Part shown: in pieces, positions 10,216-54,010 of the stretch | Numbering within the stretch: position 1 is the stretch's first letter | How the letters are laid out: each line of letters begins with the position of its first letter | Source of the DNA: a virus | Length of the DNA: 64,000 nucleotides | Reading direction: 5' to 3' (one strand) | Virus record (IMG/VR): IMGVR_UViG_3300004806_000016 | Notes under the pieces: model-generated | What the model was told of the DNA's origin: nothing | Databases searched by the model: none | What the model saw: the letters and a program-made list of their open reading frames with translations, nothing else | Translations under genes and position numbers: made by a program

Positions 10216-11379
10216 ATGCTAGATTTTTTTGATTTACCGACAAACCAAAAAACTAATCAACAAAGATTTTATTGTGGTACCAGCTCAACTTCTTTCAGTG
10301 GCCAAGGAACTATATCTGGCACTACTTTAACTATCAGTTCAGTGCAATCTGGTTCTTTGCAGGTTGGGTCAGTAATATATGGTAATGGTATAATTCCTGC
10401 TACAATTACTAATGGTTCGGGTGGGACTGGGTCTTATACTATATCTGTAAGCCAAACAGTATCAACAGCCACCACAATTACTGCTCCAACACTATACTGG
10501 CAGACATGGCAAAAACCACGTGGCATCAACATGGTTAATATATTCATGCTTGCTGGTGGAGGTGGTGGCGGCTCTGGTCAATACTTATCTTCATCATCCC
10601 CAGGAGGTGGAGGCGGAGGTGGGTCTAGTGCTCAATACAATTTTCTATTTCCAGCATATTGTTTGCCAGACGAACTTTATTTTTATGTTGGGTTTGGTGG
10701 AAGTGGTGGGGATTCTGGTAGCAGTATATCTCCTACTGCTGGTGCGCCTAGTCTTGCATCAATATATCCTTCTGCTATTCCTAATCATCTATTAGGAATT
10801 GTTTCTGGTGGTAATATTACTTTAACACTTGGGGCAGCTAGTGGAGTTCCTGCAGCTGGTGGTCTTGGGGGTTCATCCCACAGTATATCTGCTGCTCCTC
10901 TTGCTGGTTTAGGAATGAATTTATGCACTTCTGCAGCTGGTAACATTACTTTATTTGGGCAAGCTGGTGGCGGTGGTTCAATTTCCGCTGGCCCTGTCAC
11001 GTTACCATCAACAGGATTAGTTGTTACAGGTGGAGCAGCTGGTGGTGCAGGAGGTGGTGGTAAATCAGCTGGTTATGGTATAACTGGGATTAGTCCATTT
11101 TTCCCTTCTATTTCGGGAGGTGGGGTAGGTGGTGGCACCACAGGCGACGCTGGTTATGGTGGAGATGGATGTCAACCTATACCAAAATTTAATTATTTTT
11201 ATGGTGGCTGTGGTGGAGGTGGTAATGGTACTTCTGGTGGTACTTCAGCTGCAAATGCTGGAGTTGGTGGTACTGGTTCTTATGGCTGCGGAGGTGGTGG
11301 AGGCGGTAGTAATTATGGTGGGACGCAAGGCGTTGGCGGCAAAGGCGGCAATGGTCTCATAATTGTAACTAGCTTTTAA
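10216..11379 (+). CDS. Glycine-rich protein, paralog 2
   Basis: [12 protein letters not shown]...WQKPRGINM. Confidence 0.65.
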
Positions 11380-50361: not shown

Positions 50362-50436
50362 GTCGGTGTGTTGTAACGGTAGCATGCGGGTCTCCAAAAC
50401 CTTGCGGTCAGAGTTCGAATCTTTGCACCCTCGCCA
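50362..50436 (+). tRNA. tRNA-Trp(CCA), degenerate acceptor stem
   Basis: CTCCAAA loop, T-arm, GCCA end; two acceptor-stem mismatches. Confidence 0.75.
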
Positions 50437-51346: not shown

Positions 51347-51436
51347 GGTGAGTTGGCTGAGAGGCCGAAAGCACTCGTTTGCTAAATGAGCGAAGCAGAA
51401 ATGTTTCCGTGGGTTCGAATCCCACACTCACCGCCA
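51347..51436 (+). tRNA. tRNA-Ser(GCT)
   Basis: Long variable arm, GCCA. Confidence 0.95.
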
Positions 51437-51470
51437 ATATAAATACGGAGTAATGACTTATGGAGTGTTG

Positions 51471-52130
51471 ATGAAGCCCAGAATAGCGTTGTTCCAAAAC
51501 CATCCAGAATGTTCTAGACAATGCGTCAATGGAATGATTGAGGCTCTGAGAAATAATTACTCCATCAAAATAGTTTCAAATGAATTTTTCACAAAAGAAA
51601 ATCTAAAAGAATTTGATATTGTTGCATTTCCAGGAGGTATCGGTGATGCAGATACTTACTACGACTTTTTCAAACGTCGTCACGGAAATGCAGTTGCTGA
51701 CTTCGTTGATCGTGGTGGGCATTATCTTGGAATTTGCATGGGTGCCTATTGGGCTGGCCCTGATTTTTTTGATATCCTGGATAATGTCGTACCAGTTCAG
51801 TACATAACCAGAGAAACAGCAGATATACGCAGACCCTACGGGACAGTCGCGAAGGTAGATTGGTTAGGATCACAGCAGAATATGTTCTTCTATGATGGCT
51901 GTGCTTTAATAGGAGAAGAAAATGGACATGGAACATTATCTAATGTTTATGGGCGTTATGCTAATCACGATCCTATGGCTATCATTCAAGGACGTGTAGG
52001 TGTAATCGGTTGTCATCCCGAGTCAGAAAAGTTTTGGTATGACCAATACAAATATATAAAACATCATTGGCACAAAGGCGAGCATCATAAATTACTCCTT
52101 GAGTTTGTCAATAAGTTAATGCTCGGTTAG
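51471..52130 (+). CDS. Class I glutamine amidotransferase-like protein (BPL_N family)
   Basis: FPGG, YLGICMGAY, HPE catalytic triad; TATAAATA at 51438-51445. Confidence 0.8.
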   Translation: MKPRIALFQNHPECSRQCVNGMIEALRNNYSIKIVSNEFFTKENLKEFDIVAFPGGIGDADTYYDFFKRRHGNAVADFVDRGGHYLGICMGAYWAGPDFFDILDNVVPVQYITRETADIRRPYGTVAKVDWLGSQQNMFFYDGCALIGEENGHGTLSNVYGRYANHDPMAIIQGRVGVIGCHPESEKFWYDQYKYIKHHWHKGEHHKLLLEFVNKLMLG

Positions 52131-52195
52131 CTCAGAGGTAGAGCTCCTCCTTTACACGGAGATTGTCGGCGGTTCGATCCCGTCACCGAGTACCA
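52121..52195 (+). tRNA. tRNA-Val(TAC)
   Basis: Cloverleaf with CCA; overlaps the last 10 nt of the upstream CDS. Confidence 0.93.
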
Positions 52196-52297
52196 ATTGC
52201 ATATCGACGGGTATGCCTTATCGCGCTTGTTCGCCGCGATTCATAAATCATTAGGGTTAGCAGATGGCGCCATCTCCGCTAGCGGACTACCAATTAT

Positions 52298-52371
52298 TGT
52301 CCTGTAGCTCAACGGTAGAGCAGGCGATTGATAATCGTCCGATAGAAGTTCGATTCTTCTCGGGACAACCA
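52298..52371 (+). tRNA. tRNA-Ile(GAT)
   Basis: Cloverleaf, ACCA. Confidence 0.9.
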
Positions 52372-52372
52372 A

Positions 52373-52446
52373 GCTCTCTTAGTTAAATGGTATAACAGTT
52401 GATTAGTAATCATCTATTGGCAGTTCGATTCTGTCAGAGAGCACCA
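52373..52446 (+). tRNA. tRNA-Thr(AGT)
   Basis: Loop TTAGTAA; same anticodon stem as the Thr(TGT) gene; ACCA. Confidence 0.85.
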
Positions 52447-52451
52447 GAATT

Positions 52452-52525
52452 GCGGATGTAGCTTAATGGTAAAGCAGAGCGTTGCCAACGCTCCGACGAG
52501 GGTTCGATTCCCTTCATCCGCTCCA
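52452..52525 (+). tRNA. tRNA-Gly(GCC)
   Basis: Cloverleaf, U73, CCA. Confidence 0.95.
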
Positions 52526-52527
52526 GT

Positions 52528-52601
52528 TGGGGTATCGTCTAATGGTAGGACAGCGGATTTTGATTCCGTCAATCGTGGTTCGAGTCCATGTACCCCAGCC
52601 A
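52528..52601 (+). tRNA. tRNA-Gln(TTG)
   Basis: U1-A72, GCCA. Confidence 0.95.
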
Positions 52602-52620
52602 ACAAACCTAAATAAACTAC

Positions 52621-52649
52621 TTGACTTTTTAATCCAGATAAGTTACAAT
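52621..52649 (+). promoter_or_regulatory. Sigma70 promoter upstream of the arfA-like ORF
   Basis: TTGACT-N17-TACAAT. Confidence 0.75.
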
Positions 52650-52674
52650 TACAAAATAAAGAAAGGAGACTGCG

Positions 52675-52803
52675 ATGAAAAATACTTTTAAGACACGTTG
52701 CGTATACGCTAAAGCATTGCAGTCTCGACTGTTTGCTAACCGTATCGTCGCACCCAAAAAGGGCAAAGGTTCATACAAACGCAGCAAAAAAATAGCTGCG
52801 TAA
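52675..52803 (+). CDS. arfA: ArfA-like alternative ribosome-rescue factor (42 aa, not in the ORF track)
   Basis: MKNTFKTRCVYAKALQSRLFANRIVAPKKGKGSYKRSKKIAA; SD AAGGAG; LF..R....KKGKGSYxR motif. Confidence 0.75.
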   Translation: MKNTFKTRCVYAKALQSRLFANRIVAPKKGKGSYKRSKKIAA

Positions 52804-52811
52804 TGTTTAGA

Positions 52812-52886
52812 GGACCCATAGCACAATGGTGGTGCAAACGACTTTTAATCGGGAGGCTGCTGGTTCGAGTCCAGCTGGGTCTACCA
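52812..52886 (+). tRNA. tRNA-Lys(TTT)
   Basis: Cloverleaf, ACCA; two mismatches at the top of the anticodon stem. Confidence 0.85.
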
Positions 52887-53030
52887 AATTCGAGTTTTAT
52901 ATTATGACTATATGTGAAAAATTGATGGCTACATTATACTGCACTTGGATGGCTATACCTCCACTAACCATGGTGGTGGTCATCGATTTGCTTAGTGATT
53001 GAATATCTGAAACAATCTAAGGAGATAAAA

Positions 53031-53567
53031 ATGCAAAAGACTATCTTAGCGGCGCTCGCAGTAGTTGCCTCGATGTCTGTAGCATCTGCTACTGATATCC
53101 CAAGCAAGGCTGCACCAGCTATCCCGCAGTCGCCTGTATTTGTTCAAAACGGTTATATCGGTTTGAATGTTGGCGCACTAAAGGGTACTGATCGCGTCTA
53201 CTCTGGTGGTGCTGTTGCTGGTTGGAATGCCTCACCATTCCTTGCAGTAGAAGGTGCATACAGCTATAATTATGATGACAACAAGACTGGTTCTCGTGCT
53301 CATAATACACATACTCTTACTACAGCTGTATTACCACAGTATCGTATCCCAGGAACTGATCTAACACCATATCTTTTGGCTGGTGCTGGATACCGTTTCG
53401 ACAACGAAACTGCGAATCATACCGTTTATAATCTTGGTGGCGGTGTGAAATATGGTGTTTTAGTTAACACTGATATTGATTTTCGTTTCACACGTACCGA
53501 AGCCTTTGATACCAAGTATCGTGGTACCGAAGACAAGTTTACCGCTGGTGTAAACTACAAGTTCTGA
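53031..53567 (+). CDS. Outer-membrane beta-barrel protein (Omp25/RopB-like)
   Basis: Signal peptide, ATDIPSKAAP linker, alternating strands, C-terminal GVNYKF. Confidence 0.85.
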   Translation: MQKTILAALAVVASMSVASATDIPSKAAPAIPQSPVFVQNGYIGLNVGALKGTDRVYSGGAVAGWNASPFLAVEGAYSYNYDDNKTGSRAHNTHTLTTAVLPQYRIPGTDLTPYLLAGAGYRFDNETANHTVYNLGGGVKYGVLVNTDIDFRFTRTEAFDTKYRGTEDKFTAGVNYKF

Positions 53568-53572
53568 CTCAA

Positions 53573-54010
53573 ATGATTAAATTAGCATCTTTAATTTATC
53601 TAGATGCTGTTTATGAGTTAGAAAAACAATTTGGCGCAGAGGCTTTCTCAAAGAGGTCGCTGCGCCATTTCATTTTGACCAGTCAGTTATATGTATTCGT
53701 AGACAATGATGATAATGTTATCGGTTCTGCTATCATATTAAAGCGTAAGAACTCTAACAGATGCAGGCTCTACAGTTTCATAATAGATGATAGATTTAGA
53801 GGTAAGGGTGTAGGAAAGAATTATCTACATGTACTCTTAGAGCAACTTACCTACAAAGAAATAACATTAGAAGTATCTGAGAATAATAAACCTGCAATTG
53901 GATTATATACTCTGTTGGGATTTGAGGTTACTGGGACAAAGAGTGAGTATTATAAGAATAAAGATAATGCTCTTGTAATGAAGAAAGTCCTTGACAAATT
54001 TCAAAAATAA
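53573..54010 (+). CDS. RimI-like GNAT acetyltransferase
   Basis: FRGKGVG, LEVSENNKPAIGLY..LGF, YY...DNALVMKK. Confidence 0.85.
   Translation: MIKLASLIYLDAVYELEKQFGAEAFSKRSLRHFILTSQLYVFVDNDDNVIGSAIILKRKNSNRCRLYSFIIDDRFRGKGVGKNYLHVLLEQLTYKEITLEVSENNKPAIGLYTLLGFEVTGTKSEYYKNKDNALVMKKVLDKFQK

Follow-up and report, generated by a model that had tools for sequence, protein, structure and literature searches.

Reviews present ArfA as a back-up factor that occurs in beta- and gammaproteobacteria and is produced solely from non-stop mRNA. The functional parts of the Escherichia coli protein are a helix at residues 15–24, Phe25, which touches strands beta4/beta5 of release factor 2 (RF2), a strand (Q27–E30) that extends the RF2 sheet (domain II/IV), and a basic tail that sits in the mRNA channel, where a KH motif of untested importance binds a channel pocket (PMC8012679). 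A total of 46–48 residues are ordered on the ribosome, ArfA 1–40 is inactive, and an A18T change blocks the activation of RF2 (PMC8012679). Here, we describe an ArfA-like gene of 42 codons in a 64,000-nt stretch of viral DNA (IMG/VR record IMGVR_UViG_3300004806_000016), which as a whole is referred to as the window. The gene is located in the tRNA array of a T4-like phage and ends in a true stop codon. In our judgment it probably encodes a functional minimal ArfA that would act early in infection in RF2-dependent rescue, be produced through ordinary termination and independently of tmRNA, and be co-transcribed with tRNA-Lys(UUU).

An ArfA family gene in a phage tRNA array

The open reading frame (ORF) specifies a product of 42 amino acids (aa), MKNTFKTRCVYAKALQSRLFANRIVAPKKGKGSYKRSKKIAA, the C-terminus of which is IAA, and its stop codon is a genuine in-frame UAA at positions 52801–52803. 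An earlier note on this DNA had described a directly encoded 42-aa ORF between tRNA-Gln and tRNA-Lys, preceded by a promoter-like site and a Shine-Dalgarno sequence and closed by a real stop codon, and every one of these features was found (TTGACT-17-TACAAT and AAGGAG being the two upstream elements); the start coordinate given there, 52621, is that of the −35 hexamer, and the ORF itself starts at 52675. Pairwise ratios of nonsynonymous to synonymous substitution (dN/dS) among five copies of the gene were 0.08–0.26, demonstrating that this is a real gene whose protein is under purifying selection.

A hidden Markov model search against the ArfA family, proposed in the earlier note as a check, returned a match to Pfam ArfA (PF03889) above the gathering score (35.6 versus 25.5 bits; E = 6.1e-9), in which residues 15–39 of the protein aligned with positions 18–42 of the 44 in the model. 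Solved ArfA chains were the sole matches in the PDB (aligned over residues 8–39), and BLASTP against E. coli ArfA (from NC_000913) gave 13/25 identical residues (E = 4e-6). The identification of the ORF as an ArfA was hence borne out. A search of NCBIfam with the 42-aa protein gave no match, and PHROGs gave a weak match to the unnamed family phrog_37108 (E = 8.6e-4) and nothing else. Two protein libraries contained four close homologues (62–93% identity, 42–51 aa), which carry the JGI pipeline label 'stalled ribosome alternative rescue factor ArfA', and seven distant ones (43–57 aa). In a 12-sequence alignment, residues A12, L15, K28, K29, G30, G32, S33, Y34 and R36 were invariant, and K13, F20 and K31 were nearly so.

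According to the PDB-search alignment, the phage protein covers E. coli ArfA positions ~7–47 and its C-terminus equals E. coli residue 47; its length therefore reaches beyond the inactive 1–40 form and falls within the 46–48 ordered residues. By position, F20 aligns with E. coli F25 and N22-R23-I24-V25 with Q27–E30, that is, with residues that contact RF2, and the predicted mRNA-channel segment K28–R36 is that of E. coli (K33–R41) but for one residue. With a one-residue gap, phmmer aligned A12 with E. coli A18; an ungapped alignment puts K13 there. Judged from these alignments, the protein is a member of the ArfA family reduced to the core that would be ordered on the ribosome. A complex prediction for the peptide (with alignment) and E. 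coli RF2 scored 0.02, a value that counts neither way.

The distribution of conserved residues also bears on whether the peptide might fill the empty mRNA channel without activating RF2, thereby excluding tmRNA-SmpB or a host defence sensor. For such a blocker one could cite that conservation within the protein is highest in the channel-binding tail, that the N-terminus is shortened and residues 1–14 are omitted by the Pfam model, and that the KH motif is not kept. However, A12, L15 and F20 of the RF2-contacting half are invariant or nearly invariant across phage and SAR11 homologues, which is not expected were channel binding all that mattered, and SAR11 cells have kept this short form on their chromosomes. 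We regard a pure blocker as improbable.

That the gene is carried by a phage, as the earlier note held, agrees with the T4-like structural and replication genes of the window, whose products include a large terminase, tail sheath, portal, major head protein, gp46-like nuclease subunit, gp43-type polymerase and regA. The window is part of an uncultured T4-like myovirus. The best identities of its major head protein to those of cultured phages were 61–67%, none of them close, and the nearest were from Stenotrophomonas phage DLP_6, Pelagibacter phage Mosig, the Sinorhizobium phiM12 group and Methylophilales phage Melnitz. ARAGORN identified 24 tRNAs in the window, and one extra tRNA detected by Rfam (50362–50433, + strand; 33.4 bits) and lacking an ARAGORN listing brought the number to 25.

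The tRNA-Lys(UUU) gene shares its strand with arfA, and the gap between the two is too small for a separate promoter. The same gene order was observed in L001–L008 (the L numbers are our own locus names) wherever the contig reaches far enough, with a distance from the arfA stop to the tRNA of 6–8 nt in L001, L003, L004, L006, L007 and L008 and of 21 nt in L005; the neighboring tRNA-Gln(UUG) was also present in L001, L002, L004 and L008. In L075, L076 and L078, whose proteins are 61–63% identical to that of the window, tRNA-Lys(UUU) follows 215–230 nt 3' of arfA. The association with the tRNA array noted earlier thus holds, as arfA–tRNA-Lys(UUU) linkage, down to ~61% protein identity. The tRNA species adjoining arfA, tRNA-Lys, is the one cut by the anticodon nucleases PrrC and PARIS. 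Other ArfA subgroups in large phages (L021, L024, L035, L038 and L050) have the gene 0.3–1.5 kb from arrays of 12–17 tRNAs, and the majority of the small ArfA contigs are without tRNA.

As for the promoter-like site, a match of this quality is not by itself above chance, as evidenced by the occurrence of 6 sites versus 5.3 expected in the 2.3 kb scanned. The site is conserved in the relatives L001, L002 and L004, and a perfect TTGACA-17-TATAAT lies at the same place in L008; these observations suggest that it functions as a promoter. The features of the arfA unit are listed in Table 1.

Table 1. Features of the arfA unit and its flanking tRNAs, in window coordinates
Feature	Position	Strand	Basis
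tRNA-Gln(UUG), last tRNA before the arfA unit	52528..52601	+	ARAGORN; Rfam tRNA, 60.5 bits
Putative sigma-70-type promoter, TTGACT-17-TACAAT	52621..52649	+	Consensus scan, 10/12 match
Shine-Dalgarno sequence, AAGGAG	52663..52668	+	Read from the sequence; 6 nt 5' of ATG; kept in close relatives
arfA-like gene, 42 codons + UAA	52675..52803	+	ORF list, Pfam, BLASTP, dN/dS
RNA hairpin, ACGCAGC-(9 nt)-GCUGCGU, 7 bp	52779..52801	+	dG −11.3 kcal/mol, z −3.2
8-nt spacer = tRNA-Lys 5' leader	52804..52811	+	Sequence and ARAGORN coordinates
tRNA-Lys(UUU)	52812..52886	+	ARAGORN; Rfam tRNA, 58.8 bits

Beyond tRNA-Lys, on its 3' side, are genes for an outer-membrane beta-barrel protein (53031–53567, + strand; PF13505, with a signal-peptide-like N-terminus), a GNAT acetyltransferase (53573–54010, + strand) and HSP20. 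The metagenome contigs L001 and L006 share the order arfA, tRNA-Lys, beta-barrel and acetyltransferase, as does a third contig, and L007 stops within the third gene. Directly after tRNA-Lys, a small hydrophobic ORF (MTICEKLMATLYCTWMAIPP...; 52905–53002, + strand) was observed, the start of which is conserved in L008 (MSCREIIMTILWCNWMAIS); gene callers extend it to a start codon further upstream, in the tRNA, and so report a 58-aa product. Within the array, tRNA-Ser(GCU) and tRNA-Val are separated by a 225-aa ORF (51453–52130, + strand) that carries a BPL_N-type domain (E = 7.7e-14). A conserved non-coding stretch of ~150 nt, absent from the window and without a match in Rfam, is located between arfA and tRNA-Gln/tRNA-Lys in four other loci (L075:680-830, L076:6150-6280, L077:880-1047 and L078:730-857); its closing helix covaries (CUUGAGGGG/CCCCUGAAG, GAGGAGC/GCUCCUG and GAAUGCA/UGCAUUC).

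A hairpin that ends on the stop codon

The hairpin of arfA overlaps the last codons of the gene. Its 5' arm consists of the last base of the Lys35 codon and the codons of Arg36 and Ser37, its 3' arm of the Ala41 and Ala42 codons (GCU GCG) and the U of UAA, and its loop contains two AAA codons. Across seven sequences, 89% of the hairpin cells were paired and two pairs showed compensatory double changes; only 14/500 shuffles paired as well, and shifted registers were far worse. In L008, UGC...GCA replaces the AGC...GCU of the window, by which Ser37 becomes Cys and Ala41 is unchanged; L076 has AAC...GUU (G-C to A-U), and U-G pairs were found in three sequences. Furthermore, GCUGCGUAAUGUU is identical in the window and L006 despite saturated synonymous divergence between them. 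Hence the hairpin is conserved, and its covariation indicates that selection acts on the RNA, evidence that for a sample of seven sequences we consider supportive rather than conclusive.

Variants of this arrangement were present among other relatives. L005 has a different hairpin just 3' of the stop, which fits a plain 3' stabilizer. In L021 and L024, a hairpin of 10 bp begins on these Arg codons, with its register displaced by one codon. Apart from the tRNAs, neither the hairpin nor the sequence around it matched any family in Rfam. We rejected a general reading of the hairpin as an intrinsic terminator: no terminator was called in 51400–53700, and L008, L075 and L076 lack the U-tract. An RNase III site of the E. 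coli type is unlikely, with 7 bp as opposed to 20 bp. What appears specific to this clade, on comparison of the loci, is the conserved unit of promoter, arfA, hairpin on the stop, 8 nt and tRNA-Lys(UUU).

Since the hairpin directly precedes tRNA-Lys(UUU) and has two AAA codons in its loop, and since Lys accounts for 9/42 codons of arfA (21%) versus 5.7% in the long ORFs of the window, we considered a Lys-codon-rich leader, in which the ORF would mainly serve tRNA-Lys expression, its translation controlling the hairpin, and the ArfA likeness would be secondary. Yet Lys richness is a family-wide property of ArfA, including members without a nearby tRNA, and neither a conserved U-tract nor an alternative antiterminator pairing was seen; selection on the protein and the Pfam match above the cut-off also speak against it. 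This is the lowest-ranked of the rivals and, in our view, very improbable.

The 3' arm of the hairpin also encodes the C-terminal tail, which the earlier note had called ssrA-like. The protein ends in KKIAA, i.e., in a free C-terminus with a hydrophobic residue and then Ala-Ala, and all clade members down to 61% identity end in KK[IV]AA, SVAA, KIAA or a shorter KVA/NVA. Known C-terminal ClpX signals are those of ssrA (..YALAA), RseA(1-108) (..GVAA) and MuA (RRKKAI) (PMC8138137). The resemblance to LAA/VAA signals and its retention in the close clade therefore stand, and KKIAA could be a ClpXP degron; the same rescue factor would then be short-lived and its activity would track transcription closely. 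What undercuts this claim is that the tail codons GCU GCG are the 3' arm that pairs and covaries with the invariant Arg codon and the codon after it: with Arg-Ser in the 5' arm, a complementary 3' arm in frame must read Ala-Ala. The compensatory changes in L008 and L076, together with arm codons whose synonymous sites are fixed where dS elsewhere is saturated, imply that RNA pairing alone can explain the tail. Moreover, most other viral ArfA and all SAR11 homologues end otherwise, the KKVAA stretch of L021 is internal rather than terminal, and on the ribosome the tail would lie inside the mRNA channel. Exactly six residues follow the invariant Arg in the window clade and the SAR11 proteins alike, in agreement with the length ordered in the mRNA channel (PMC8012679). 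Thus, a degron is possible and compatible with RF2-dependent rescue by this protein, and taken by itself we think it rather doubtful.

Hairpins within arfA ORFs were also found outside the clade. In the arfA genes of three alphaproteobacterial metagenome-assembled genomes (L093, L128 and L140; ~1590–1660 each), an in-ORF terminator made up of a 12-bp GC-rich hairpin and a U-tract begins on the Lys/Arg codons right after GSY, which is the position of the window hairpin. A viral arfA (L033:6001-6147) has a strong intrinsic terminator, GGCCGCUGCGAAGCGGCC then UUUUUU, inside the ORF and 10 codons past the Arg; by its sequence, this is the classical non-stop design in a phage contig. Among viral arfA genes, 17/44 had a hairpin ending ≤3 nt from the stop, compared with 103/511 among control ORFs (p = 0.007). 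Since this enrichment is only modest and the samples are non-independent, our case is not built on it.

These observations are pertinent to a non-stop switch, whereby a cut by RNase P would be followed by exonuclease trimming to the hairpin on the U of UAA, and some arfA mRNAs would lose their stop. The output of phage ArfA would, in this unlikely case, be tied to tmRNA capacity and tRNA-Lys processing and, if true, the bacterial non-stop design would here be operated by tRNA processing. It would explain why the hairpin terminates exactly at the stop codon in seven diverged relatives with the tRNA beginning just 6–8 nt later, and would be in keeping with the full terminators on the same Lys/Arg codons in L093, L128 and L140, the in-ORF terminator of L033, and the enrichment of stop-proximal hairpins, subject to the same non-independence. 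It sits poorly with the true in-frame stop in every clade member, with L005, where the hairpin follows the stop and the stop is protected, with the lack of a conserved U-tract after the hairpin (e.g., in L008, L075 and L076), and with a 7-bp stem far below the 20-bp E. coli RNase III hairpin. We consider such a switch unlikely, and favor ordinary termination at the UAA for this gene.

Short ArfA genes in viruses, SAR11 and cultured phages

Scanning IMG/VR for ArfA-like loci, with lengths taken from our own ORF calls, confirmed at least 67, among which 45 were short (36–76 aa, with true stops) and 22 were fused to a C-terminal domain or otherwise long. In 21 of the at least 67 loci, the ArfA-like module is part of one ORF of 101–142 aa with a conserved C-terminal domain, some of them with an N-terminal extension; the motif of the fused domain is ..GNYTKP..RKR(I/L)F..IK(A/S)GGKGG.PGQWSARKAQ..GGGY (fused loci: L018, L019, L026-L028, L034, L036, L037, L039-L042, L046, L052-L055, L058, L071 and L074).

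The closest cellular relatives found (46–68% identity) were almost all from Pelagibacteraceae. Chromosomal arfA genes of SAR11 (among L085-L142; e.g., L102:1501-1593 and L122:1501-1581) encode 38–42 aa, with a true stop and no hairpin, and they occupy a fixed place in the order YkuD, response-regulator-like gene, arfA, PfkB and HhH-GPD. Cultured phages with a gene annotated 'alternative ribosome-rescue factor' include Brevundimonas phages (Kabachok, 39 aa) and Citromicrobium phage RXM, whose g10 has been noted as ArfA (PMC8953757). The gene is unannotated or 'hypothetical' in Caulobacter phage Cr30, Ochrobactrum phage vB_OspM_OC, Erythrobacter phage XM05, Sinorhizobium phage phiM9, Pelagibacter phage HTVC027P, Roseobacter phage CRP-212 and Pseudomonas phage pf16; in HTVC027P, high expression of this gene (gp30) has been reported for both the early and the late phase of infection (PMC12753301). 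The unannotated ORF in Cr30, a cultured T4-like phage, reads ..RNPIAKALRSSHLQPKIVKPRKGKGSFTRKGK (KF301602.1 ~11139-11291, complement; L143:2447-2599) and is flanked by two genes annotated RNA ligase. Salmonella phage Arash (OQ632216.1 57937-58077) carries a 47-aa ArfA of the gammaproteobacterial type, 100% identical to the L035 copy and labelled 'ribosomal protein L2', which is likely a mis-annotation.

A tblastn search of 50,697 phage records with the 42-aa protein found nothing at E ≤ 1; this reflects a limit of sensitivity, as queries from other phage ArfA genes did find the copies in cultured phages. It follows from the loci collected here that the directly encoded short form, which the earlier note had singled out, is indeed present in the window and is no innovation of this phage, being common in viral contigs, SAR11 and cultured phages. 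The sequences point to the short, stop-terminated form as the usual one outside the classical beta- and gammaproteobacterial genes. ArfA genes of phages as such are already known and annotated, and this locus adds one, uncharacterized.

Proposed action and comparison with known systems

In the mechanism that we favor, the basic KKGKGSYKR-SKKIAA half of the protein would thread into the mRNA entry channel left empty when a ribosome has stalled at the 3' end of a broken mRNA, and the N-terminal half (the helix around A12–L15, F20, and the strand N22–V25) would recruit and activate the RF2 of the host, which would free the peptide and allow the ribosome to be recycled. The protein is predicted to be made early, by means of its own host-type promoter, a strong ribosome binding site and a true UAA; with these three elements, its synthesis should not await failure of tmRNA, unlike that of bacterial arfA. 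The gene and tRNA-Lys(UUU) would be on one transcript, from which excision of the tRNA by RNase P would set the 3' end of the arfA mRNA 8 nt past the stop, and the hairpin on the stop codon would most likely shield that end from exonucleases. The likely benefit to the phage is that ribosomes would be kept free while mRNAs, and possibly tRNAs, are cut during infection.

Several points weigh against this proposal. Equating A12 with A18 requires the one-residue gap in the alignment. The KH motif of E. coli ArfA (K44-H45) is replaced by K39-I40, with K-V or K-I in relatives, and the N-terminus is 6 residues shorter, the Pfam model aligning from residue 15 onward only. Use of the promoter, RNase P processing and the transcript 3' end are each deduced from sequence features. 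A literature search found no functional study (activity, ribosome binding or RF2 dependence) of any phage ArfA. Furthermore, ArfA/RF2 pairs are reported to be species-adapted (PMC8012679).

The locus and its relatives make up a broad set of minimal, stop-terminated ArfA genes in phages, mostly those of Alphaproteobacteria, and in SAR11. If these are active, then (i) phages supply their own tmRNA-independent recycling of ribosomes, in large phages beside sets of tRNAs, (ii) ribosome rescue joins the translation functions brought by phages, and (iii) the 42-residue form would be the smallest working ArfA, of use in structural and synthetic studies. Through the conserved coupling to tRNA-Lys(UUU), rescue is connected to tRNA supply in a concrete way that can be tested; the conserved arfA–hairpin–tRNA-Lys unit is the one detail of the locus deserving experiment, and the cultured Caulobacter phage Cr30 and Brevundimonas phages make tests feasible.

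Among known systems, E. coli ArfA (YhdL; PF03889; PDB 5MGP, 5MDV, 5U4I and 5H5U) has in common with the phage protein the core LF.xR(V/I)...KKGKGSY.R, a conserved Phe at a position that contacts RF2, with a conserved Ala that falls on A18 if the one-residue gap is allowed, and the basic tail that fills the channel; the length of the phage protein is that of the part ordered on the ribosome (PMC8012679). The E. coli protein is a 72-aa ORF trimmed to ~55 aa, compared with 42 aa in the phage, which apart from its shorter N-terminus and K-I in place of KH has no hydrophobic C-terminal extension. E. coli arfA yields a non-stop mRNA through a 20-bp RNase III/terminator hairpin at codons ~51–67, ten codons further on than the 7-bp hairpin of the phage gene, which has a real stop and, unlike E. 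coli arfA, resides in a tRNA array, joined to tRNA-Lys.

BrfA of Bacillus subtilis and the terminator-type arfA genes of other Alphaproteobacteria provide RF2-dependent back-up rescue, and their ORFs end in a hairpin; in L093, L128 and L140 the hairpins begin on the same Lys/Arg codons as that of the window. Their hairpins are full intrinsic terminators that give rise to non-stop mRNA (PMC8012679), whereas in the window a 7-bp stem without a conserved U-tract precedes a stop codon and a tRNA. BrfA itself is unrelated in sequence. The ArfA of SAR11 resembles the window protein in its 38–42 aa, its real stop and the six residues after the Arg, and differs in its housekeeping chromosomal context, the absence of a hairpin and of a tRNA neighbor, and tails that read ..KKV or ..KKA. 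The annotated phage ArfA genes (vB_BpoS-Kabachok KABACHOK_05300, 39 aa; RXM g10; HTVC027P gp30), mostly from phages of Alphaproteobacteria, are also short with a real stop, and their products are ~45–55% identical to the window protein over the core, with different tails (..RKGRGA in Kabachok). No annotated tRNA lies closer than 2 kb to the Kabachok gene or closer than 2.5 kb to the Cr30 ORF; compared with the annotated phage ArfA genes, the unit of a hairpin on the stop codon joined to tRNA-Lys is confined to the window's own clade.

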